DNA of 64,000 nt, taken from Vermamoeba vermiformis. Its lineage: Eukaryota. The translations under genes were made by a program, and so were the position numbers. The stretch lies in contig JBEWZL010000064.1 in the NCBI GenBank assembly GCA_045837725.1, forward strand, positions 372,001 to 436,000, read 5' to 3'. Shown piece by piece: positions 4,711 through 62,370 of the stretch (position 1 is the first letter of the stretch; each line of letters starts with the position of its first letter). Below the pieces are notes generated by a model that saw only the letters and a program-made list of their open reading frames with translations, had not been told where the DNA came from and searched no databases.

Positions 4711-5665
4711 TTATATTCTAGCCATCTCATCAGGGTGCATAGTTGCGTTAGCCGGACTGGCTTTTTTTGCTATGAACATAATGATGAACATTACAGCGCG
4801 ATGCAAGAACATCATTAGACACGCAAAGCCACCGACCTCGCCGATCCATTGGTCAGGAGTATAAATATAATACTCGGTTTCGGTCCAGTAGCCTTGTTTA
4901 GCAAAAACAAAGTCTACGTCGATTACGTTTTCTTGAGTCGGCAGATTTACTGGTGCCGCCGAATAAAGCACGCGGAATTCTCGTTCATTTGTGCCATCGA
5001 TCTCAGTCACGTTGTAGAATGTCAGCCAAACCATTGTCACGTGACCGACTTCGGCAATAAAAGTGTTTTGTTCGTCGAGTACAGGCGGGGATCCAGAATC
5101 ATGCACGAACACGGTAGCGCCGAGAATAGGTTCTTTGACACCATCATATGTAGTGTTCATAGATAAAGTCACTGCCAGTTCATCGCCAGCACTCGTTGAG
5201 AGAACAGATCCGTCGCTATTGAAAGTGAAGCAGTTTCTTGGTATTCCTTCTAATGTTACGGATACGGTTGTTATAGTAGAGCTACAACTGTTCATTGCCA
5301 CTCCGTTTTGCTCGTAGATGCATTCTAAAGGAGTAAGAGGGTTGGATTCAGGGCAGAAAGTAACTGCAGGGAAATTAATCGACGGGGTTGGTGTCCAAAA
5401 TGCTTGTGTTGCAGGCTGATGATTGTAGGCGTTATATCCTCGGACTCCTGAATATTTCAGAAAACGATTAATTAGATTGTGGTTTTAGGTTATAAGGTAG
5501 TTCTGGATTTCGTTTCAAAAATGCGTTTTGCCGCCAAAAGAAGGTTAAATTATTATTACCTGCGAATATTACAACAACGAGGAAGAAAAGAACGCCGAGA
5601 GCGATTTCAAATCCTCGTCCAACTCGGATCGCCTTTGGTGATGCACCTGACTCGAACCAAACCAT
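4711..5665 (-). CDS. Small two-TM DEG/ENaC-like ion channel subunit, 280 aa (exons 5665-5560, 5447-4711)
   Basis: TM1 (IALGVLFFLVVVIFAGV), post-TM1 SINFPAVTFCP, RNCFTFN, GATVFVHD..PP, VDFVF...Y..ETEYY.Y, and pre-TM2/TM2 WIGEVGGFACLMMFL; motifs occur in DEG/ENaC order. Confidence 0.7.
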
Positions 5666-8109: not shown

Positions 8110-10447
8110 TTAGGACTGCACATTCTCATTTGAGACAAGTCTGAACTTGGCGAACATGAACGGATATCTGTCTTGGTACCAGTTCCTATTAAAGATGCAA
8201 TAGGTTAGAACTAACGATATACCATAATAAGGCAATCTATATTGCGTACCTGAAGCTTGGTCGGATCAGTTTGAGATCTGTCGCGAAGCTAGCGCCCTTG
8301 ATAACGTAGTGCTTGCCTTCAAAGAAGTCCGAAGAGTATCCAGGATAGTGCTGCAAAAATAACTCGTGTCAGATTCAAGAATTGATGTGATTCTATTCGT
8401 TCATTCGAAATCTCTCTTATTGAAATTGTGCTGCCACAATGCACTTACCGGCATCGCCTCGAAGCCCTCTAAAGGTCCAAAAGGTGTGCTGGTCCATTCC
8501 CACGCATCGCCGATCAAGTCATGCACGCCCCACGCACTAGCGCCCTTGGGATGAGTGCCGACTGGAGTTGGGGACCAGCTGTTCCAATCAACATTGCAGT
8601 GCTCGGGTGTGAGTGCTTCATTGCCCCAAGGATATTTCCTGCAGCGCCTTATTATTATCCAGCTCATACATTAAGTGTAAGCTCGTGCGTACCTCTCGGA
8701 ATTGTCATTCGGGCTCGTGTAAGCAGCTCGCTGGTACTGCGCTTCGGTCATCAAAGATCTGCCTTTCCATTTAGCATAGGCTGTAATTAGAATAGGAATT
8801 AATCCATAGATGTGACTAACGAGTGCTAATGTGAATTACCAGTAGCTTCAGCCCAGCTCACAAACACGGGCCAATTAACAACTTGCGCAATTGGAATCTC
8901 TTCAGAGAACAATAGTTTAACCTAGATATTAAGCGGATTAGAGCAAAGTCTAAGAATAAACCGTGGTATTAGAACTTACAGCGTAAGATCCGTCTTCGTG
9001 TTGTCGCCAGAACACGGGATGTTTCATGTTTTCCTTTTCTTTCCAGATCCAGTCCTCAGGTCTCCAGTTCTGTGGGTTGTCATATGCTCCACTCGTAACG
9101 AACTCCAAGAACTCGCCATTGGTTACGTTCAACGAGTCAATAGTGAAGGCTGGAACATCAACCTGAATTAATTAAGTTAGACACCTTTGGATCTAACATT
9201 CCACGAATGGACCGAAAAGTTATTGTACTATTACTAGGATTGCATCTTTTTTTGCTAATTTTAGGTCAGATTTTTCTTTCGAACGGTTCGCGTTCTAGAA
9301 TCGTTGAGAATATGACTTACTTGTGATTTAGAAAATTCGTTATCCCAACCCCACTCAATTTCATCAAAGTTTACGCCAAGAGTGACCTTGCCGGCAGGGA
9401 TGTGGATTTGGTTCTTTTGTACTTGCGAAGGACCAGTGATCGGGGCTGGAATCCAGTTGGGCTTGTGCTTATATTTGCCATCGAGCTGTTGGTACATGTA
9501 CAGCAGCGTCTCTTGATGCATCATCTCGTGCTCCAGGCCTAAGTGATAAACACGGACTTTTTTCCATAAAAGGAAAAATTAGCGTTCCGTTTAGATTATA
9601 ATTTTATTACCAACGATCATATTATTATTATTTATATTCTTAAATTTGTTGCTCGACTTACGATTTGAGGTCCACTTATTTTCCGTCGTGTTTTTTGCCT
9701 GATCAAAGGCTTCTAAAATCTTCTCGTGGCATTGTTGCGCATAGTCCTTAACTTGCTCGTATGAAGGCCAGCCTGAGTTCTCTTTAGGACACTCCGAATG
9801 CGAATGGATTTTCGTTGGATCCATAACATCCGGATCAATTCCGCGCTCGAACATGTTGTCATACTAAAATCGGACTAATTAATAAGATCGCTATCAAGTG
9901 CATAATATCGTTCTATAGAAATCGTATTAATTGAAAAAAAACGGGGATTAATGTGCGGATGCATCCAGACCCAGATAACTTCGAGAAATTGATATTCAGT
10001 ACGCGCACATAGACGCAGCGTATTTCGTAAGGATGATTTGGGCACTCCATTTGAAAATAGCAATTATTTAACGGAGATCTCAGAGCAATTTTTTGAAAGG
10101 ACGCAACGATTAGCGCAAAATAAATTTAATTAAGCTTGATTCAATTTTGTTTGACTATAAAATAGTATAATTTACTATTAACATATTAAAATTAATCCAA
10201 CAAAATTCGTAACACGATATGGATTGGATCTATTACTTACGTCCTCATTGAATGGCTCCTCTTTGCAAACCTTTCTATTGACATGAATATAGTTGAAACC
10301 GGCAATGTGGCCAACATAGAATAAGAAAGGATGTCGCAGCTCGATCGGCTTGACGAGAAGGGCATCTCGGGTAAGAAATCCGTCGAAGAATGTTTCAGAA
10401 CGAGCCCATAACTTTCTAAATTGTGCTTCTAAATGTCGTTTATCCAT
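8110..10447 (-). CDS. egtB: Ergothioneine sulfoxide synthase (DinB-like + FGE-sulfatase-like; Egt1/EgtB family), about 9 coding exons
   Basis: KPIELRHPFLFYVGH, FERGIDPDVMDPTKIHSHSE, iron-binding EHEMMHQETLLYM, WGWDNE, VTNGEFLEFV, YPWGN, GVHDLIGDAWEWT, YPGYSSDFFEGKHYVIKGASFAT, RPSFRNWYQ. Confidence 0.88.
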
Positions 10448-10771
10448 ATTTACTGTCCCGAAGCGTTAGCTTAAAACTCAAGGGATGCAGAAATAGCAAG
10501 AGCTCTTAACTAACCTTTTGTTTTGTTGCTTGAAGACTTCGATTTGGGTAATGTCAAAAGGTATTAGAATTCCGCCTGTTTAATGCCAAGTGGGCGAATT
10601 CTGGCTGATTTTTTGGTTGGGGAAATAGATCGCACGACTTTTCATGTGCTTTTTAACCTTAATTTGGTGAAAAGTCCGTCTCGGCGATTTTGGCAGACTC
10701 CTCCGTCCGAACCTTCCCTCATCATTCTTCCAGAAGTAATCTAGATTACGACCACACCTCTTCAAGTAACA
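10448..10771. promoter_or_regulatory. Candidate bidirectional promoter between egtB and egtD start codons
   Basis: Only 324 nt separate the divergent ATGs; the interval includes a probable minus-strand 5'-UTR intron of egtB (CTAAC...CAG just upstream of ATG 10447). Confidence 0.5.
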
Positions 10772-12397
10772 ATGGCTACAGACGTAATCCGCGCCGCGAT
10801 CCCTTTGCCTAAGTAAGGATCCTTTCCGCCGCTTCAAACTACTATTAGCAAATTTATAAACACCAACAACAATCGCATCATATATTTACCGCGATTATAG
10901 ATTGTCGTTCTGGTTGTCCTTGTTCTTTATAGTTCACCAAATCCGGACTTTCAGAGCGCATGACTAATTTATCATTAATTTAGGGTTTCGCAACACAAAG
11001 TCGACGAAAGATTTAATCTTATTCAATACCAAACCAATCTCGAGTCTTTCTCTTCGAACGTAAAGGATGGATTGGGCGCTAAAAACAAACAACTTAGTCC
11101 TGCTTTCCTCTACGACGAGCGCGGTTCAAATCTCTTCGAAGATATTTGCAAGCTCGACGAATACTATTTAACCCGTTCAGAAGCCGAGATCTTGGAAAGT
11201 AAATCCCCCGCGATCGTGGAACCCTTCGACAAAGAAACTGTAGTTGTCGTAAGTATTAATTATAGCTATCATAGCATCACGATCCTCATATAATATGATA
11301 AATTGAAGGAAAGTCGCGCGTGACCCGTCGTCAGACTTTAAATTTATTACCAAATTTGTAACGCTATTTCCAGCTTTTCTTAAATAATATTCCCTGAAAT
11401 TATGCACTTGTATTATTGATTTGTTGAATTAACGTAATATAATGTTTAGGAACTCGGATCTGGCAGCTCTATTAAGACCAGACTGTTGATCGACGCTTAC
11501 ACTCGCCGTCATAACGGCATGCATTACGTGCCTATTGATATCTCCAGTACGATGCTCAAAGAGAGCTCGCAAGATATGTTAAAGAGCTTTAACAAGCTGA
11601 AAGTAACTGGTATTGCCGCTGAGTATCGCGAGGCTTTGCGCCATCTGGCTGCATCTCGCGAGTTCAGAGACAAGCGAAAATTGGTTTTATGGCTTGGCTC
11701 GAGCATTGGAAACTTTAACAGAGCACAGGCGTTGCAATTTATGACCGAAATCAGAACTTTGTTGAAGCCTGGTGATTGTTTCTTGCTCGGAGTGGATTTG
11801 AAAAAAGACGAAAAGTAAGTGCCTTTACTCCTCGTTATTATCGACATTTTTAGTCATATTTAATCATATTTGAATATTACTACGATAGTTGTAAGCCAAT
11901 TTGACAGCAAAACTAACGCGCATTTCTCAATCTAGCATTCTTGTTCCTGCTTACCACGACTCGAAGGGAGTGACCGAAGATTTCATTAAGAACGTGCTTC
12001 GTCGAATTAACAACGAGTTGGGAGGCGAATTCGATTTGAACCAGTTCACTTACAGCGCCATCTACAACCAGATCGAGGGCGCTATTGAAATGAGATTGGT
12101 TAGCAACGTAGAACAAACTGTAAATATTTCTTCGTTGAATATGGACGTTCAATTTAAGGAAGGAGAAGCCATTTTTGTTGAAAGCAGCTACAAGTAAGCA
12201 AAAATGAATTTCAGATGTAATTTTGATTAAATTACTAACGGTCAAAAAATAGGTATAACCAAGATGATATTGAGACATTGGTTAAAAATTCTGGTTTTAC
12301 CTTAACTCAGCAATGGTTTGATTCAAATAACCGATTCAGCTTGAATCTGCTGACTGTCCCCGACCAAAAGTCCACGAATCCGCTCCAATATTTGTAA
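10772..12397 (+). CDS. egtD: L-histidine N-alpha-trimethyltransferase (EgtD, Methyltransf_33), 5 exons
   Basis: Exon 1 ATG 10772 (MATDVIRAAIPLP, GTAAGG donor) joins in frame to the exon at 10984; motifs FLYDERGSNLFEDICKLDEYYLTRSE, ELGSGS, YVPIDIS, WLGSSIGNF, LLGVDLKKD, AYHDSKGVT, VESSYKY. Confidence 0.92.
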
Positions 12398-12581: not shown

Positions 12582-15093
12582 TTAGTATTTGAGACTATAA
12601 GCTTCAGCTAAGATTTGTACTGGATGTTTTGTTTTAATCTTGTCGCGCGGCAATGAAGGCTCAATGTTCGTCATGCCTTGCTTAATATGATCGACTGCTA
12701 ACGGGCAATCCGAAGCCACGATATGCTCTTGCGACTCGTTCTCTACAAAACGGAAAGAATTTCAGTTTTAATGGAATCGCGCAAGACGAAATTCATCTTG
12801 AGTAGTTAGTTACCTCTCTCTTTAAAATTTCTGACTGCATTTCTAAATACTGGCTTTCCTACTTTCATGGCAACTTCATGGCCCTCCTACAACATTTTCA
12901 GCACCCGGATGCGTTTTTACTTGGAAAATTGGCCTACCTTATCAACACCAAAAGATCCGCCGTGGCCTGAGCATCGTTCGACAGATGAGATTTTCAAGTC
13001 AGGTATCATTTGTAACAGCTCTTGCGACTTAAATCCAACAGCTTGCGCTCGAGAATGGCAACTATGATGCAGCGTAACGGATCCCGTGTGATTCTTAATT
13101 GGCAACAGACCATGCTCTTTAGACAGCTTAACGACATATTCTGAAGCATCGTACGTATTTTTGGCAACTTTTTGAACCAACTAACAAAATATTAGTAATG
13201 GATTTGAGATCCTGATGTGATGGCGTACCGAGTTGTCGGGCATTAACAGAGGCCATTCTTTCTTCAACATTAATGCACATGAGGCTACTGGAGCAACAAT
13301 ATCGTATCCTTCATCGATGTATTTGCTCAATACTGCAGTCACTTTGACCGCTTGTTGCATGGTCTCTTTCACTTTGCCTTGCTCGAACTGCGGCATGCCA
13401 CAACAGCCCGGGTACTTCGCTTTAACTTCGACTCCATTGTGCAATAACACTGCTCGTAGTGCTATCACAAATCATTATTAGTCGAGGGATGAAAAGTCTC
13501 CGTATTGACACGTGTCAAAGTGCAAGTTCACGTGTCAAAATCTGGCTTGTACGTACCGTGACCAATCTCAGGCTTATTATAATTAACTAGACATGTCGTG
13601 TACATCAATACTTTGCGCTTTTGATACGCTTTGCCTTCAGTATTCACGGGCACAGGGGTTGTTTTGACCTTGTTCATGAATGTTTCTCCCTTCGGCACGT
13701 AATTGGGTAATTCCGCCTTAGGATGGACTCCTTGTATTGCAATAATTAATATTAATAAGAGTCTATTATATACTTATATATGTTGCATACCTGCAATGTA
13801 ATGTAATGCTCGTCTAAAAATGGACGGATGTTCTTCGTTTGTTTTCAACATCCAGTTAACTAATTTGGAAAATCTTGAAGCCAATGGACCAACAAGATCA
13901 ACATTAGTATATAGTGCATGCGTGATACCTAGCAAAAAATATTTGTAAGGATTTCTACATTAACCAACAAAAAAATTGTTTCTATTTCCTAATTAGGTAA
14001 TACTTACTTTCGGCCTGGACTTCTAATTTTCTCGAGACATCTTTTTCCACGTGCGTTGAACTCTTATCAACGGTCTGACTAATTCTACTGCCTGAAATTT
14101 CATCAACGCTGTACTTCTCGGGCTTCTTCAATGTCACGCCAGCCACATTGCTATTCATATTCTCGACTGCTCGGTAGCGCAGCATTAAGTGCGGAAAATC
14201 TATGTTCAGCGTGTGCGGCGGTACGTAAGGACATTTGCTCATGAAACACAAGTCACACATGGTGCACTTGTCGACGACTTGCTATATAATAACATTACGT
14301 TAGTAATATTCATACATTTTATCTTGCAACGTTAAAATGAAGCGAAATCATGCGTGATTTGACGGATGCAGATTCTGGATCGAGCGAAAAATTACCTTAA
14401 ATGAAGAGCTAGGCACACTATCAAGTTCTCCAGTCTTACTATTATCGACTAAATCAAATAGGGTTGGAAAAGAGTCGCACAATGAATAGCATAAGCGACA
14501 TCCATGACACACGTCGAAGACACGACGCATTTCCTGTTTAGAAAAGTCATTTAGCATATAGTTCCATAATTATAGTTATTTTACATATTTTGAACGCCAA
14601 ACTTACGAGTTCTAATTTTTCCTGATTGTAAAAATCCGGATCAGACCACGGCAGAGGATACCGGAATGTTCCCTTGTGCGCTTCACCTATAATTAATATT
14701 AGCTAATTATTTTGTAACGCAAATCGCTTCTGACTTACCGTATTTGTTCGCCGCTTCGGATGCGAGATTTGGATCGGTTTGTTGCTTCGTTACTTTACTG
14801 TTGCATGGTGAAAATTGGATAGAAGATGTATTATATGATTTTTTAATAACATTTTGGGCCTTGTGAGATACGGCGGGTTGAGTGACGCGAGATCGCGAGA
14901 TTCTTAATATTGTCTGTTGAACAATTAAATAAATAAATTAGCTACTATGTGGAGGAGGGTAAAAATGGTATTTATAATAATTTTTGGTATTATTGAGTTG
15001 AAAGAAAAATTAATACGCGGGTGCAAAAGATTTCTTTGGATTCACAAATATTCAGCCCTTAAAACATACCCTTCTTGCAATATTATTCAGCAT
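12582..15093 (-). CDS. Bacterial-type Fe-S oxidoreductase (GlpC/HdrD-like: 2x[4Fe-4S] + CCG domains) with predicted mitochondrial presequence, multi-exon
   Basis: EMRRVFDVCHGCRLCYSLCDSFP, CTMCDLCFMSKCPYVPPH, YPGCCGMP, PVASCALMLK, HHSCHSRAQ, ERCSGHGGSFGV, VASDCPLA, HPVQILAEAY; spliced N-terminus MLNNIARR-TILRISRSRVTQ is Arg-rich with no acidic residues. Confidence 0.85.
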
Positions 15094-37456: not shown

Positions 37457-39421
37457 TTAAGCGTCCTTGGTGACGTCGTGAATAGCCTTAGCCAAGTATT
37501 CGACGTTGCCAGAGGTGACACCGGCCATAGAGACACGACCGTCCTTGGTCAAGTAGACGTGCCACTTCTTGGTCAAAGTCTCGACTTGAGCGGGAGACAA
37601 ACCAGTGAAGCAGAACATACCAATTTGGTTGGTGATGTGAGACCAGTCTCGCTTGGAGCCCAAGTCCTTCAAGTGCTTCACCAACTTTTGTCTCATAGAG
37701 ATAATTCTGCTGGCCATGCCGTTGACTTCACTCAACCATTCCTTCTTCAACTCAGGGTTGTTCAAGACGAGGTCGACGATGCGGGCACCATAGATAGGAG
37801 GGTTAGAGTACATAGGTCTGACCAGGATCTTCAATTGAGATTCAAGGCGCTCCTTCTCTTCGGCGCTCTCGGCGATGATTTGGATAGAACCAACACGTTC
37901 ACCGTAGAGACCAAAGTTCTTGGCGAAGGATTGAGTGATGATGGGCTTGTGACCCTTCTCAATGAAGAGGCGGACAGGGAAGGCGTCCTTCTCGGGATCA
38001 CCGCTAGCGAAGCCTTGGTAGGCACTGTCGAAGAAGATAATGTGGTTCTTCTGCTTGCAAACTTGCTCAATTTGCTTCCATTGAGACTCGGTGGGGTCAA
38101 TACCGGTGGGGTTGTGAGCGCAAGCGTGCAACAAGATGATGGAATTGTTGGGGGCGTTCTAAAAATCGGATGTGGCTGTTAGCTACATGCAAATACGAGA
38201 AAATTGCGATAATGCTTCAACTAAAGCGACGCATAGTCGTAGTACACAATGCGCGAGAAAAGATTTTCAAGCAAAATTTTCTAAGGTCAGATTCGTTGCT
38301 CGACCCTGATTTGATAAGAACGGACTAAGCTCTGTAGCACTTACCTTCAAGTCCTCCAACATGCCGTTGAGGTCCAATGAGTTGCCAGACTTGTTGTAGT
38401 ATCTGTAAGTCTTGACATCGAAGCCAGCATCGCGGGAAATAGGGACGTGGTTACCCCAAGTAGGATCGGGGAGGAAGATTTCCTAATTAATTCAAAAATT
38501 AGAAATTTGCCTCGGTTTAATATTCTCGAAATATGGATATCTTTGTTTGGCCGTTAGAGCGTTCGTTTACAATAAAGCGGCGCTGTACTGATCAGATTTC
38601 GAAAACTTACCTTGTTGTCCAAGAAGCGTCTCAAGAAAGAGGTAGCAACTCTGAGGGCACCAGTACCGGACAAGGTTTGAATAACGGCAACCTACGAGAA
38701 AGAACCATGCATTAGTAACCCTTGTAAAGAGCGCGGCTGGAAATTCATGAACGAGTTCGCCCAACGGTCAGATGTGAACCAAAAATTCAACCCGGTAAGA
38801 TTTGAAATACCGCTACAATTCAAACTCCTTATCACGCAATTAATTATGGCAAATATCAATCTGACCGAGCAGTAATTGCCGAGAATAATTTGTCCACGAG
38901 GCGGTCTGAAGATCTAGGGAATAAACGGCGTACCTTGTTTTCCTTGATGAAGGGATGGTTCTCACCCAAGAGGAGCTTAGTAGCAGCCTTAGTGAATTCG
39001 GGAATACCGCTGATAGCAGCATACTCGTGATCCATCTTGCCCTCGAAAATTTTCGTTTCAGCCTACCAACATTAAATCGTCAACCTAACCTTCCAATCGA
39101 TGCAAAAATACACGTAGTATTTTTTTATATTTTTAAATTGGTATTTTTTGAATTGCATCCGAAGAAATTTAAATAATAAGGAATTAAACTCACCTTTCGG
39201 ACGCAAGAAAGAACGTAAGGTTTGCCATTATCGTCACGATAAGCACCGACACCCAAGTTCATCTTGTTGGGGTCAGTGTCGGCCTTGAAGGCGACAGTCA
39301 CACCGAGAATAGGATCAGGGGGACCCATTTGAACCTTGGACCAGATGGTGGAGTAAGCACGAACACCGGATTTGGTGGCGGTCTTGGTAGCAACAGTCTT
39401 GAGAAGTTGGCGAGCGAGCAT
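37457..39421 (-). CDS. GOT2: Mitochondrial aspartate aminotransferase, multi-exon
   Basis: Presequence [10 protein letters not shown]...; [62 protein letters not shown]. Confidence 0.97.
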
Positions 39422-44008: not shown

Positions 44009-45859
44009 TTATTTTTTTGCGTAGTACAAATCCAAATAACGGTAGTAGATGTAATTTAACTTGTCACGCGGGAAAATTCGCAGCAGTTCCCAAGCCAGAT
44101 CATAAGTCTTCATCAGATCACGTGACTCGTTCCAGGACTGGTTGATCATTCGTCGATCGAACGCATCTTTGAAATTCAAGTACAATTGCTCATTTGGGTC
44201 AAAAAATGACTCGCCTACAACTGCCCGATAGGCAGCAATTTCATGGCCCTTAGCGTACAATACGTCCTGCATTATGCTGCGATTAACAAATGATTTCCAA
44301 GAAAAGGAGTTTTTGCGTACCAATTGAAATACAATGGAACGGTGGTCTTCACGTGTCAAGCCGTAACCCAAAACTGTGGGGATTTTGTAAAAGGCCATAA
44401 CGTCTATTGGCGGATATATTCCACGATTGTGCAGCTGTCTGCTGAGCACCAGATAATTTTCAGTAAATGCTCCCATCAGATCTACCATCGGATGGGTCAT
44501 ATCATCGGCGGGGACAGTCATTATAGGCACTATAGTCAATGAGCCGCTCGATCCTTCAACAACGCCTCCACGTTCAAATAGACTTGCCAGATCCGAACCC
44601 AAATAGCTCGGATATTTTTGTGTCTTTGACACCTAATCGTAGCAAGTGTCAAATTTTAGTTGAATTAAAAAGGCAATATACTGACATTACGATCAATCAG
44701 CTGCATGATGCCACAATAAGCTTCCATATCTAAAGAAGGGTCAGTTTTAAATGCTACGGAAAAATCTACGAGTGCAATGTACCTGTAATTACAACCATCA
44801 CGTGCTTTTGTTTCTCGTAAGCCAAGTACTCCGCGAATGTCAAAGCGAGTCTTGGTGTTAACAATCGTTCATGAATTGGATCGGAGATGCAGTTCATGAA
44901 CGAGGTGACTTGGTGCTTGCTTTGCAGCTCTTTGAACTCCGCTGTGAAGAACCGCATGGCATCGTTTGATAGCTGCACGGTCGATTAGTGTCATAATACT
45001 TAATATAACATACAATTTATGAGAAGTTGAATATGGACTTACGCCAATGCCAGCAAAGACAATCGTGAATTCTTCGGAGAAATTTCGGGCATGTTCAGGC
45101 TTGACGACAGCAGCTTGACGAATGATTTGCGCGGCGAGTTCATTGTGCGGCAGACCAGCTGCAGAATATATGGTGTATACGCGACCAATAGCAATTGTGT
45201 TCATCAGATCTATGGCACCAACGCCCGTTGTAATTATTCCGTTGGGCCATTGGCGTGCAACTGGATTGATGGGCCGGCTTTGAATGTCCACGTGCTTCTC
45301 GGGGTACGACGCAAATGTTTTGTCCCTGGGCTTGCCTGAACTATTGTAGTAAGGCGAGGATTAGATTGTGCATCACAACGATAAAAAATGAAGCGAGATC
45401 TAACCCATCAAAAAATCCTCCAATCATGTCCTCGCTCACTGGCATCTTGAACACCTCGCCTGTGCACTCGACTCGCACTTCAGATAGGCTCATACCAGTC
45501 ATTTCTTCAAAGACCTTTAATGCGGTAAATTAGCCATTCAATACCGAATCCGGAAAAAATTGGGACTTACTTGAGCTACAGCTTTATTTCCAGATATTTC
45601 GACGATTTGACCTCGAACCATCTTTCCATTTTTGGAATAAATATTGACCATCTCCATCAGTTTGGGCTAAAAGACGGATCAATCGTAGGTTCAAACTCGC
45701 TTACAAAACAGATAAAAATTACCTTAATATTTTCTATTACCAACAATTGCTCCCATGTTGCTGCTCTAACCATTCGACAGCCTTAAATAAAGGTTAAAAT
45801 AAATTCAGAATATTTTCAAACTTGCTTGTCAACGGCTGGGCAGTCAAATTCGATTCCAT
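44009..45859 (-). CDS. Highly divergent V-type ATPase subunit B paralog, multi-exon
   Basis: VRGQIVEISGNKAVAQ, PINP, AIDLMNTI, YSAAGLPHNELAAQIIRQA, ERLLTPRLALTFAEYLAYE, DDMTHP, RQLHNRGIYPPIDV, DLAWELLRIFP. Confidence 0.88.
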
Positions 45860-58500: not shown

Positions 58501-61500
58501 CGGTGAAGGTCAAAAGATTGATCGTATTTTGGAAAAGTACGCTGAAAGATACTACGCGCACAACCCGAACTCTTACTACGTGACCGCTGATGTCGCGTAC
58601 ATGGTCTCCTTCGGCTTGATTCTTTTGAACACTGACTTGCACAATCCCATGAACAAAGTCAAGATCACTTGCGCAGACTGGAAGAAGAATCTCCGTACTC
58701 TCAGCGATGACATGAAGAACTTTGATGACGCGTACTTGGACGTTTTGTACGAGAGAATCGCCGCCGAGAAGATTAAGTTCATCGACGACGAGTTGCGCTA
58801 CGGCAACATGAGCGGCGTACTGCCCACTGTTCCTCGTAAGTAGCTTCTTACAATTGCAATATTATCCATTACTAACAACGGATTGTCACAGAGGGACTTA
58901 AAGACCCCAAACAAAAGCTTGCTCTTTTCAATCAAGAGACTCAAACAGTCATCAAGAAAACTCAAGAAGAGATCAAAGAAAAGATGAAACGCAAGGCTGT
59001 TTATCACCGTGCTTCTAACCCCGGCTACGTCAAGCCTATGATGGCCGTCACTTGGCACACGATTCTTGTTGCTCTGAGCTTCGGCTTGGACGAGAATGAT
59101 GACGCCAAAGTCATTCACACCTTGTTGGAAGGCCTGAAAGGTGCTATTCGTGTCACTTCCATCTTCGCCATGGACATTGAACGTGATGCCTTTGTCACTG
59201 CTTTGGCCAAGTTCACTTGCCTCGACGGTCTCCGCGAGATGAAGCCCAAGAACTTGGAAGCTGTTGCCGCTTTGATTGAAGTAGCTGAGGCCGACGCCAA
59301 CTCTCTCAAGGACTCGTGGAAGGAAGTTTTGCGTAACATTTCCCACTTGGAGCGATTGTACTTGCTTGGATCTGGTGGCAAGATTGACGACTCGATGGGC
59401 GCTGATAAGCCTGGACCTACTGGCAACAAGGGCACGGTCAATTTGCCTGCTAACCGTCGACCTGTGAAGACTAACTTCGATGACGTCAATGCCCCGTTGA
59501 TTGCTTCAAAAGTTAAGCCCGCAGTTATTGACCGCATCTTCACTAACAGTGTCAAGTTGAACAAGTAAGTCAGCCCTAAGAAGTTCTATTAGAACGTGTT
59601 TCTAACCATCTTTAGCAATGCAATTATCGACTTTGTCACGTCTCTGTGTACAGTATCAAAGGAAGAAGTCGCTTTGCCCAACCCACGCATTTTCAGCTTG
59701 CAAAAGTTAGTCGAAATTGCTACCTTCAACATGAACAACAGAATCAGACTTATTTGGGTCAAGATGTGGAAGATTCTTGCCGATCATTTCACTAGCGCTG
59801 GCTCACACGAGAACAAGCGTGTGGCCATGTACGCCATTGACTCGTTGCGTCAGTTGTCCATGAAGTTCTTGGAGAAGGACGAGTTGGCAAACTTTAACTT
59901 CCAAAAGGAGTTCTTGAAGCCCTTCGAGTACGTAATTAATGGACACTTAAAGCAGGTCATAGTACTAATGTTTGACAAACAGAGTTGTATCAAAGACTGA
60001 GTCACGCGAGATCCGCGAGTTAGTTTTGCGTTGCTTGTCACAAATGATTATGGCCCGTGCTGTTGCTATTCGTAGTGGCTGGAAGAGCGTCTACACCGTA
60101 TTGACGAGCTCTGCTTATGACAACGACGAGGTACGCCAAAGCTTTTGTTCTCTGTCTTTTAACACACGTGCTAACTCTCAATTAGACGATCGTCAAGCTT
60201 GCTTGGGACACCATCGAGCTGATCCGTGTCAACTTCATGAACATGGTCATCGAACAAAGTTTCTTCCGCGAGTCTGTCACGTGCTTAGGTGCATTTGCTT
60301 CATCTTGTAAATTCGTTGAAATTGCCATTAAGTAAGTCCCTGTAGAGTAATACTCGGGTGTAGAGAAGTGTGACTAACATGTGCTTTCAGGGCTATTGAA
60401 GCATTGTACAACTCAGCCGAACAACTCGCTAGTGGACAAATTATGTTGGTTTGGGAACGCAAGCATCAACAAGATGAAGCTGCAGCTAACAAATCACCGC
60501 GCTCAACACCTCAAGCCAGCCAAGATGACCTTCAATCGAGCGACATGGTCTCACCGCGAGACAAGACCTCGCCTACTGCTCGTGTGCACATGATGTGGTA
60601 CGCTATTTTCTCTGGCTTGACTGGAGCTTTGCACCACGCCAACATGGACGTCCGAACTGAGTAAGTCACTTGCCATAAAAGGAAATCTGAACGGAGATTT
60701 AACGATTGCAATAGGGCTATTGACATGTTGTTCCGTGCCTTGAGCATGTTTGGCTTTGAGTTTGATCCAAAGCTCTTGTCGATGGTCATTGAAAGGATAT
60801 TGATCCCTCAATTCGGTACCATGTTCCCTGCTGCTGGTGAGAAGATGGCTGATATCGATGAGGAGTGGCTCGTGACCACGTGCTTGAAGGTCTTGCACAA
60901 TTTAGTCTTGATCTTCTCGTCTTTGTTTGATAAGATCCCAGCCTTGCTCACTGCCATGCTTGACTTGCTGACCAAGTTCATTGTGGACGGCAACGAGTCC
61001 TTGGCTACCTTTGGAGCTACCTGCTTGGAACTCTTGTTGTCATTGACTGGTGAAAGATTCAACCCCGAACAGTGGTCACAAGTCACAACGACCATCAACT
61101 CGACAGTACGCAGAGTTTGCCCTGTCGAGCTGTTTGACCCTGAAGAGCCACCTGCTCCTGAAGTACCCGAGGAACAACCTGCCCCTGAAGCTAACCCGCG
61201 ACAAAGCGCTGAAGGCACGGCTGCTGCTCCTACCTCTAACCAAGGCTCCTTGTCTAATAGCAATACTTCTAACCCCACCAAGTCTATGGGATCTATGGGC
61301 TCAATGGGCTCGATGGGCTCTATGGGCTCCACGGGCTCTTCCATGGGCTCCATGGGTTCAATGGGCTCGATGGGATCGATGGGCTCAATGGGTTCGATGG
61401 GATCAATGGGCTCGATGGGTAATAAGGGCGGCTTCAACAAGCAAAACAGCCAACGCGACCTCAAGTTGAACCTTGGCAAGCTCTCACGAAGTAACTTGTT

Positions 61501-62370
61501 GGCCCCTTCAACACCCACTGCTACTGGCAGCAACACTGGCACACCAAACACAGCTCAAGGAACCAACCCGCTGACACAATCTAACGCCAGCACTCCTGCC
61601 CCGCCACAAACACCCACCCCTACTCCCTCGCGATTTGACGAGAAGTACTTGAGTGGCAAGATCCGCGTGCAAAACTTGGTGTTGGCAATGATCAAAGAGA
61701 AGTGTCTAGAGAACAAACTGCTCTATCCTATCTTGAGCACCGAACACATTGTCAACTTGCTCGATGCGCTCTTTGAGGCCTATGAATTTGCTCACCGAGT
61801 CTTGGCCAACGAACCAATCCGCGAGGCTCTGGATCTTGGTAAGTCAAAAATGACATTTTGACACTTTTGACATGTTTGCTAACCATGCGCAGGTCTTGTT
61901 GATTTGTTCATGAAGCAAGAAAGCTTTGCTATTTCAACGTACTTGGACTCGATCTTTAGATTGTACGCTGAAGAAGGCCCTGACAAGCAACAACGAAACC
62001 AGATCGCGGAACAGCGCATCTTAGAGTACGTCAGACACGCACTTGCCTAATTAGGAAAAAGTACTAACGTTATCTTTATAGCAATATGAAGTTATTGGCT
62101 GATGGATACGTCGACGCTGTTAAACAAAAGCGAGAAGCTGGATCTAAAATCAGCGCTAAGCAGCTGAAAGTTATTGGCGGCGAGATTCCTATTATCACAC
62201 AAGTATTGAAGGGACTGTTGACTATGACAGACGATCAGTTCGAAAAGTATATTCCTGTCTTATACCCAGTTTTGACCGAGCTGATCGGATCTGATAACGA
62301 AGATATCCGAGATAATTTGAAGACGCTGTTCACTCGTGTCGGAAAAATCAAGATTTATGGACAAAAATAG
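55535..62370 (+). CDS. ARFGEF: BIG1/BIG2/Sec7-type large Arf guanine nucleotide exchange factor, multi-exon
   Basis: AVRTCYNIYL, VFRALCKLSMK, KVLSLELL, FLNYDCD, Sec7 catalytic FRLPGEGQKIDRI, LNTDLHNP, FSLQKLVEIA, YAIDSLRQLSMKFLEK, IRSGWK. Confidence 0.96.
61283..61420 (+). repeat. Coding 9-bp tandem repeat encoding (Ser-Met-Gly)n
   Basis: 14 SMG units plus one STG within 46 codons, with varied synonymous codons (TCT/TCA/TCG/TCC; GGA/GGC/GGT). Confidence 0.95.

Follow-up and report, generated by a model that had tools for sequence, protein, structure and literature searches.

A divergent, unfused pair of genes predicted to encode an Egt1-type sulfoxide synthase and an EgtD-type histidine methyltransferase in a eukaryotic genome

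This report concerns two head-to-head genes in a stretch of 64,000 nucleotides (nt) of eukaryotic DNA (contig JBEWZL010000064.1 of assembly GCA_045837725.1, positions 372,001 to 436,000 of the forward strand), which in its entirety we call the window. Our main finding is that the pair probably constitutes a module of two genes that covers steps one and two of aerobic ergothioneine synthesis, with the two enzymes made as separate proteins in a eukaryote. In the proposed pathway, an EgtD-type S-adenosylmethionine-dependent methyltransferase would convert histidine to hercynine, and an Egt1-type non-heme-iron sulfoxide synthase would join cysteine to C2 of hercynine, giving hercynyl-cysteine sulfoxide; a pyridoxal phosphate (PLP)-dependent C-S lyase, presumably encoded elsewhere, would complete the pathway. 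The locus is real and probably functional, its function being predicted from sequence. It represents a new variant of a known pathway, and the wider range of gene architectures found among protists is the more interesting lead. The two genes, their exons (amino acids abbreviated aa), and the spacer are as follows.

10447-8110, minus strand: sulfoxide synthase gene (EgtB-like, Egt1-type), 9 exons, 454 aa, start codon ATG at 10447, stop codon TAA at 8112-8110
10447-10241, 9863-9662, 9556-9321, 9162-8980, 8921-8840, minus strand: synthase exons 1-5, splice model
8780-8693, 8638-8449, 8350-8250, 8185-8110, minus strand: synthase exons 6-9, splice model
10448-10771, no strand: intergenic spacer between the start codons, 324 nt, 41.7% G+C, presumed bidirectional promoter
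10772-12397, plus strand: EgtD-type L-histidine N-alpha-methyltransferase gene, 5 exons, 357 aa, start codon ATG at 10772, stop codon TAA at 12395-12397
10772-10812, 10984-11248, 11450-11814, 11936-12193, 12253-12397, plus strand: methyltransferase exons, splice model

The original prediction, made by a model from the sequence, held that two intron-bearing genes diverge here from start codons 324 nt apart, and this was borne out by the gene models together with spliced RNA. The window has the character of eukaryotic DNA, with a G+C content of about 40% and short GT..AG introns. All 12 introns of the pair have GT..AG boundaries and measure 54 to 377 nt; 8 of the 12 have a GTAAGT donor, and 8 of the 12 carry CTAAY near the acceptor. 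Both genes are transcribed in RNA-seq run X17, whose contigs confirm 6 of the 12 introns, namely, all four of the methyltransferase and two of the eight of the synthase (joints 8350/8449 and 9863/10241, corresponding to introns 8351-8448 and 9864-10240). The 11814/11936 joint of the methyltransferase was also present, with one letter changed, in the raw RNA reads of X21-X23. The acceptor of synthase exon 3 was placed at 9556 by reference to the full-length protein P0122, to which the synthase is 92.1% identical (418/454), and the methyltransferase is 95.2% identical (340/357) to P0001. These orthologues, of 454 and 357 aa, respectively, are likewise separate proteins.

The plus-strand protein is a clear EgtD, with histidine trimethylation as its predicted activity. 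A Pfam scan of 10 exon translations from both genes assigned a family to 7 of them, and Methyltransf_33 (PF10017) was found on all four of the methyltransferase exons tested (72.9, 126.8, 90.2, and 17.4 bits, the last being under the cut-off of 23). Exons 2 to 5 correspond to positions 2-66, 67-183, 186-268, and 270-303 of the 304-position profile, so that the domain is covered over its full length. The TIGR03438 equivalog score was taken on P0001 in place of the window's own methyltransferase, and at 344.7 bits it lies above the cut-off of 290.9; P0001 also matched solved mycobacterial EgtD structures at an E value of 6e-55. The identity originally proposed for this protein, a histidine trimethyltransferase, thus gained support on all three counts.

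For the synthase, the same Pfam scan matched FGE-sulfatase on two exons and DinB_2 on exon 1 (18.6 bits, under the cut-off of 24.8) and gave no family for exons 2, 3, and 8. The DinB_2 plus FGE-sulfatase architecture is present, and H47, H146, and H150 are invariant both in the synthase alignment and across relatives. Both synthase motifs quoted in the original prediction, of which one is FERGIDPDV.DP..H.HSE, occur in the translated protein (MFERGIDPDVMDPTKIHSHSE and LEHEMMHQETLLYM). The former is part of a larger insert, DPDV..DP..(C)HxHSE.P..WP, which the window clade has in common with fungal, algal, amoebozoan, Plasmodiophora, and Rokubacteria-type proteins and which is absent from Acidobacteria-type proteins, canonical EgtB, and the EgtB-IV-like protein P0394. 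The C terminus of the synthase follows directly on the FGE domain, with no OvoA-type C-terminal methyltransferase, and a search of all six reading frames of the 64-kb window gave no GVDEMSWDD-like (OvoA-type) motif; these two absences had also been predicted.

The active site was compared in an alignment of 31 rows made up of 24 family members, 2 divergent sequences (P0359 and P0363), and 5 references (the EgtB-IV-like P0394, three canonical EgtBs, and one SenA-like sequence). The window synthase carries Arg38, Tyr44, His47, Asp79, His146, His150, Tyr398, Tyr401, and Asn431-Trp432-Tyr433. His47, His146, His150, Tyr398, Tyr401, and Asn431-Trp432 are the same in both fungal Egt1 proteins and in nearly all of the 24 family members, and the two divergent rows lack the family's active-site residues. 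By comparison with solved homologues, we take His47, His146, and His150 to be the iron ligands. A preprint compresses the superfamily into 17-residue motifs, with RxYH--DxHxHYxNWFx as the EgtB-IV pattern, and describes a bulky aromatic residue in the hercynine-accepting subfamilies at the position where the histidine-accepting OvoA and OvsA have Ala (10.1101/2024.04.10.588772). Asn431-Trp432 of the window synthase corresponds to the hercynine-type pair, with Trp and not OvoA's Ala at the histidine-binding position. Because of these active-site residues and the adjoining EgtD gene, hercynine and cysteine would most likely be the substrates, and hercynyl-cysteine sulfoxide the product. Fungi are described in the accessible text of another source as using cysteine for ergothioneine synthesis (PMC8433421).

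Searches of curated models and of solved structures were run with P0122, and they place the family within its superfamily. Full-length matches to solved sulfoxide synthases were strongest for EgtB-IV (8vig, E value of 6.5e-67), followed by Mycobacterium thermoresistibile EgtB (5e-50) and OvoA (1.8e-48). Since the best curated model is ovoA_Nterm and the best structure EgtB-IV, the Egt1-type family as a whole lies on the OvoA-like side of the superfamily. The claim that the synthase is Egt1-like rather than OvoA therefore stands as regards the insert, the active-site columns, Trp432, and the missing OvoA methyltransferase, and is tempered by the rank of ovoA_Nterm among the curated models. In the ESM Atlas, only bacterial clusters of the same Pfam families were listed for P0122.

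Several results weigh against reading the pair as an ergothioneine module. The synthase lies below all of the NCBI curated cut-offs, that is, those for canonical EgtB (TIGR03440, types I/II), SenA (NF041186), and OvoA (TIGR04344), P0122 scoring 281.8 bits on ovoA_Nterm (cut-off 400), 231.7 on SenA (420), and 220.2 on EgtB (360), so that its name rests on motifs, neighbors, and relatives. Every family member tested, including two named fungal Egt1 proteins, was also under these cut-offs; the Egt1-type family is not covered by the bacterial curated models. No C-S lyase candidate was found among the 40 long open frames scanned in the window (exons of fewer than 110 aa being outside the scan). The sole PLP enzyme among those frames is an ordinary aspartate aminotransferase 25 kb from the pair, and the aminotransferase-fold domains that are fused to the synthase in some relatives had no match in the window; both results are consistent with the earlier statement that the window holds no C-S lyase. 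A literature search found no assayed enzyme of the stand-alone eukaryotic synthase clade. Finally, in the raw RNA of X21-X23, depth reached about 15 in one bin of the methyltransferase and at most 0.8 in the synthase, yet this is neutral on co-expression, as these reads are 95 to 99% alike (from another strain), patchy, and stripped of less similar reads, and their depth is unfit for gene-to-gene comparison.

The arrangement itself recurs in a relative. Metagenome contig L090 (3354 nt; about 70 to 80% nucleotide identity) carries the same head-to-head pair, with gaps between the matched exon segments at places matching the window introns and with 309 nt between the start codons. It was the one close relative among 61 loci returned by a metagenome scan with an EgtD alignment led by P0004; the contigs that encode P0004, P0146 (both 58% in EgtD), and P0148 (49% in EgtB) lay outside the collection scanned. 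Alignment of the two spacers (window 10448-10771 against L090 1301-1609; a comparison of two sequences) revealed conserved islands amid diverged sequence, including GAATTCTG.CTGAT.TTTTG.TTGGG, CTTAATTTGGTGAAA, and TTACGACCACAC, which are candidates for shared promoter or control elements. The spacer probably holds the promoters of both genes, and the two genes may be regulated together, as originally proposed.

An additional observation concerns P0125 and P0141, a full-length synthase and a full-length methyltransferase of a close relative, for both of which the longest contig is 2857 nt. This is roughly what the two intron-free coding sequences and the spacer would add up to, and, if it is a single contig, divergent transcripts would have been assembled together; we draw nothing from it.

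The relatives of the synthase show how variably these modules are arranged. An exhaustive profile-free search with P0122 returned 28,737 proteins at E values of ≤0.001 and 640 at ≤1e-30. We considered the best 150 and fetched 149, and 68 of them (the best-scoring and most of the longer proteins) were scanned with Pfam. Stand-alone proteins made up 34 of the 68, and the other 34 were fused to EgtD and/or a class I/II aminotransferase-fold domain. EgtD precedes the synthase, in Egt1 order, in 21 of the 68, the named members being from the fungi Catenaria and Sorochytrium, the green alga Closterium, and an MMETSP protist. The synthase precedes EgtD in six, and reverse-order (EgtB-EgtD) fusions such as P0288, P0286, and P0355 come from Plasmodiophora brassicae, Flabellula baltica, and bdelloid rotifers of the genus Rotaria. 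The aminotransferase fold occurs as aminotransferase-synthase-EgtD (two proteins), aminotransferase-synthase (three), and EgtD-aminotransferase-synthase (two); the aminotransferase-synthase form is found in Rhizamoeba saxonica and the three-module EgtD-aminotransferase-EgtB form in a seawater metagenome record.

These aminotransferase fusions (P0292, P0329, P0295, P0318, P0369, P0337, and P0415) are of interest in their own right. The aminotransferase-EgtB-EgtD form measures 1160 to 1271 aa, and among solved structures the extra domain of P0295 is closest to 1-aminocyclopropane-1-carboxylate synthases (E value of 1e-35). The fused domain could be the C-S lyase of the pathway, which would make such a protein a three-step ergothioneine synthase in one polypeptide.

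The nearest relatives of both window proteins are themselves unfused. For the synthase, these are the 92% orthologues, found on metatranscriptome-sized contigs, followed by P0148 (49%) and P0278 (50 to 52%), the last of which is filed in EukProt under a sponge transcriptome and may come from an associated organism. For EgtD, they are P0004 and P0146 (58%) and then EukProt transcripts (P0157, 50%) and unnamed proteins. Among prokaryotes, a scan with one genome per species yielded 588 synthase relatives, of which the best 80 (39 to 47% identity) include Rokubacteria, Gemmatimonadota, Planctomycetota, and many Vicinamibacterales. An egtD homologue adjoins the synthase relative in 76 of these 80 loci; this linkage, like the fusions among the relatives and the conserved pair in L090, speaks for the ergothioneine reading of the window pair. 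In the two Rokubacteria metagenome-assembled genomes (MAGs) closest to the window synthase (L001, 2861-5305, and L002, 2901-5323), egtD is upstream of the synthase gene and head to head with it, on the opposite strand; in the other 74 egtD-bearing loci, it is mostly on the same strand.

The trees separate this family from canonical EgtB and SenA. In a FastTree phylogeny of 151 synthase rows, the window falls in a 4-row clade (support of 100) within a 64-row clade (95) that holds all of the eukaryotic fusions together with the Rokubacteria-type bacteria; outside it are most of the sampled bacteria, canonical EgtB, SenA, and the EgtB-IV-like P0394. The proteins that pass curated cut-offs (P0368, P0381, P0410, and L106, with L094 for SenA) form, with the near-cut-off TIGR03440 rows P0395, P0398, and L097, a group separated at 100. 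An IQ-TREE mixture-model analysis of 65 synthase rows, with 4 rows of the canonical EgtB/SenA group as the outgroup, kept both the 4-row clade (99) and the separation of the family from canonical EgtB/SenA (100), and it left 25 of 62 inner branches open in its backbone. In a FastTree phylogeny of 167 EgtD rows, the window belongs to an 11-row clade (96), apart from the fungal/algal fusions (98) and the reverse-order fusions (100); a group of 49 rows takes in both this clade and that of the fungal/algal fusions. Approximately unbiased (AU) tests rejected neither a union of the window clade with the fungal/algal fusions (p of 0.875) nor one with the Rokubacteria-type bacteria (p of 0.918). The free "quick" IQ-TREE search was short, and both constrained searches reached a better likelihood, so that its detailed topology is unusable. 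The phylogeny that the original prediction had called for sets the family apart from canonical EgtB and SenA, and the AU tests are compatible with the window clade joining either the fungal/algal fusions or the Rokubacteria-type bacteria.

Two accounts of the origin of the pair fit these data: descent within eukaryotes from an old lineage that was never fused, and independent acquisition from bacteria. According to the acquisition account, which we regard as a serious possibility short of even odds, bacterial egtB and egtD were gained by horizontal transfer, possibly as one piece and independently of fungal Egt1, with introns added later. The synthase is indeed as near to Rokubacteria-type EgtB (L001, 47%; L002, 45%) as to the eukaryotic fusions (P0279, 45%; P0280, 43%), and the egtD genes of L001 and L002 are head to head with the synthase gene, as in the window. 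The window EgtD is 46 to 51% identical to stand-alone proteins of about 330 aa, the few named ones being from bacterial (Myxococcales, Gemmataceae, and Chloroflexota) MAGs, versus 28 to 37% to most fusion EgtD domains; its orthologue passes the bacterial equivalog cut-off, and grouping with the Rokubacteria-type clade is acceptable in the AU test. However, the EgtDs that sit beside the closest bacterial EgtBs (those of L001 and L002) are only 38 to 39% identical to the window EgtD and fall elsewhere in the EgtD tree, so that no common donor is indicated. Moreover, both window genes belong to well-supported small clades that are wholly or partly transcriptome derived, some of the members coming from eukaryote collections, and the fungal/algal grouping was likewise not rejected.

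The other account, to which we give somewhat less credence, is that the pair preserves an old eukaryotic unfused state, sister to the Egt1 fusion lineage and thus prefusion, one of the two states that the original prediction had suggested. In its favor are the DPDV..DP..(C)HxHSE.P..WP insert in common with fungal, algal, and other eukaryotic proteins; the 64-row FastTree clade uniting the window with all of the eukaryotic fusions; the position of the EgtD clade in the same 49-row group as the fungal/algal fusions; and the AU result for a joint clade with those fusions. Fusion has also clearly taken place repeatedly and in both domain orders; as the fusions of both orders fall in separate clades, fusion is recurrent and an unfused ancestor plausible. 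On the other side, the IQ-TREE backbone leaves 25 of 62 inner branches open, and both the insert and the 64-row clade also take in Rokubacteria-type bacteria. The version of this account in which the pair arose by fission is less likely, and recent fission of a fused gene is the least likely origin of all, because none of the trees places either gene inside a clade of fusions; the head-to-head layout would also require an inversion.

A further reading, to which we give well under even odds, is that the pair is a small eukaryotic metabolic cluster that keeps the unfused state, whether as a one-piece gain from a bacterium with divergent egtB and egtD genes or as a form resembling the ancestor of repeated fusions (EgtD-EgtB, EgtB-EgtD, and the three-module form with a PLP lyase-like domain).

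The host is very probably not a fungus, and our best guess is an amoebozoan. The aspartate aminotransferase exon mentioned above (37457-38155, minus strand) shares 97% and 81% identity with unnamed proteins and 63 to 69% with the best named ones, among which Mucorales (63 to 68%) and dictyostelids (up to 69%) score alike. In a 41-row aminotransferase tree, the window groups with the dictyostelids, away from fungi and animals, with weak support (86). Also encoded in the window are an ASC/ENaC-type channel domain, a tyrosine-kinase-like kinase, Serinc, TMEM43, ANAPC4, FAM91, and a BIG-type Sec7 protein; several of these (the channel, the kinase, TMEM43, and FAM91) are unusual in fungi, and the ASC sodium channel family is mostly known from animals, which makes its presence relevant to the placement of the host. 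No rRNA, tRNA, or other RNA markers were found in the window, and an LRR protein compared with the ESM Atlas gave no useful taxonomic pointer. The earlier description of the organism as a nonfungal eukaryote is thus likely rather than proven, the dictyostelid-side aminotransferase speaking for it and the weak support of that placement holding it back.

We consider it improbable that the host belongs to some little-sampled fungal lineage or that the locus is a contaminant or assembly artifact. GTAAGT donors and CTAAY near the acceptor are common in fungi, and the introns of the pair have strong GTAAGT donors, with CTAAY near the acceptor in 8 of 12; many Mucorales also figure among the best named aminotransferase matches. 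Set against this are the equal scores of the dictyostelid aminotransferases, the dictyostelid-side (if weakly supported) tree, and the ASC/ENaC-type channel, tyrosine-kinase-like kinase, TMEM43, and FAM91 in the same window. Bacterial contamination is ruled out by the spliced introns and by eukaryotic neighbors on both sides.

A last alternative, which we think very improbable, is that the synthase makes an ovothiol-type 5-thiohistidine or selenoneine and that the methyltransferase serves another product: ovoA_Nterm is the top curated model with SenA second, and the closest structure, EgtB-IV, is called remarkably OvoA-like in the accessible text of its description (10.1101/2024.04.10.588772), but both model scores fall under their cut-offs, the window holds neither a C-terminal methyltransferase nor an OvoA-type motif, the columns that bind hercynine or histidine hold Asn-Trp, as against an aromatic residue and then Ala in OvoA, the composite pattern is unlike those of SenA and OvsA, and an EgtD gene lies 324 nt away.

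Elsewhere in the window, frames judged by eye suggest that the direct neighbors of the pair are an RNA-binding splicing-factor-like gene and a cysteine-rich iron-sulfur-type gene. The latter lies directly downstream of the methyltransferase (12917-14569, minus strand), its exons carrying CxxCxxC...CP and resembling, again by eye, an iron-sulfur oxidoreductase subunit. Two frames at 44012-45360 (minus strand) are like V-type ATPase subunit B and look unusually diverged, with ATP-synt_ab matches of no more than 75.5 and 30.1 bits; visual inspection shows changes in many of the conserved motifs, and the frames may represent a diverged paralogue or a copy in decay. The channel match comes from a 257-aa frame at 4714-5484 (minus strand), which fits the amiloride-sensitive sodium channel family (ASC) at an E value of 7.6e-10. 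In the BIG/Sec7-type protein at 60665-61858 (plus strand), the C-terminal part contains a long run of GSM tripeptide repeats, which produced a spurious collagen match.

In teaching, ergothioneine is generally credited to fungi and some of the bacteria. In the accessible text of a 2026 report on plants, fungi and certain bacteria are named as the only producers known until that report (PMC13358676), and in another source archaea, fungi, and mycobacteria are given as the groups with ergothioneine, and other eukaryotes as those with ovothiol (PMC8433421). Our literature search, whose coverage left out most subscription journals, found no description of amoebal ergothioneine genes or of an unfused eukaryotic pair. 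Against this background, Egt1-type synthases and EgtD modules, which take five or more gene architectures here and come from Amoebozoa, Plasmodiophora, bdelloid rotifers, a green alga, and unnamed protists, suggest an ergothioneine pathway far wider in eukaryotes than textbooks hold, and the pair adds to these signs. Among them, the locus is a clear example of the unfused condition in eukaryotic DNA: its two genes bear introns, are transcribed separately, and share a short spacer, in a layout kept in one relative. If the pair is indeed a cluster keeping the unfused state, ergothioneine synthesis would be ancient and common among the protists of soil and water and not a fungal specialty. It now becomes possible to test whether protists supply ergothioneine to the food webs of soil and water, how many times the pathway genes were fused, and whether a bidirectional promoter substitutes for fusion in coordinating the enzymes. 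The stand-alone eukaryotic enzymes may also be offered for biotechnology.

Comparison with known systems helps to define what is distinctive here. EGT1 and EGT2 genes, together with ergothioneine, are reported from streptophyte algae and nonflowering land plants, and the Closterium protein P0422, with Egt1 domain order, is among the relatives of the window synthase. The plant and algal EGT1 is of the fused type and was found by searches with yeast genes; the text of that report mentions neither EgtB, EgtD, fusion, nor unfused forms (PMC13358676).

EgtB-IV, the cyanobacterial and OvoA-like enzyme (PDB 8VIG and 8VIH), is the best solved match to the synthase, and chemistry on cysteine and hercynine is expected for both. 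The window residues fit the EgtB-IV pattern RxYH--DxHxHYxNWFx except for Tyr433 in place of Phe at the 16th position, in a column mapping that is ours and not the authors' alignment. The EgtB-IV-like protein P0394 (586 bits on ovoA_Nterm) nevertheless differs in occupying a very long separate branch and in having no CHxHSE insert.

The bacterial egtB-egtD pairs of Rokubacteria, Gemmatimonadota, and Vicinamibacterales (L001-L080) resemble the window pair in that their synthases are stand-alone proteins of about 430 to 450 aa with the same active-site columns. They differ in having no introns, in being mostly codirectional operons, and in EgtDs that are 31 to 51% identical to that of the window; the Acidobacteria-type members, in addition, lack the CHxHSE insert carried by the window synthase.

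Another close counterpart is fungal Egt1, in which a type III sulfoxide synthase and an EgtD-like methyltransferase make up one polypeptide and which is represented here by the proteins of Catenaria anguillulae (ORZ35066.1, P0396) and Sorochytrium milnesiophthora (KAL7749401.1, P0403), which have the same two catalytic modules. All 22 compared columns are identical apart from a Phe/Tyr swap in one of the fungi; the DPD..DP..CHxHSE.P..WP insert is alike, although the Cys of CHxHSE is Ile in the window; and the synthases, about 36 to 38% identical, fall in the same FastTree clade. The window methyltransferase, in contrast, is 46 to 58% identical to stand-alone EgtDs and 31 to 34% identical to the fungal EgtD module, and the two modules of the window are genes on opposite strands, with no N-terminal EgtD fusion on the synthase. 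Encoded in this way, the pair would work like Egt1 without being Egt1 in the strict sense.

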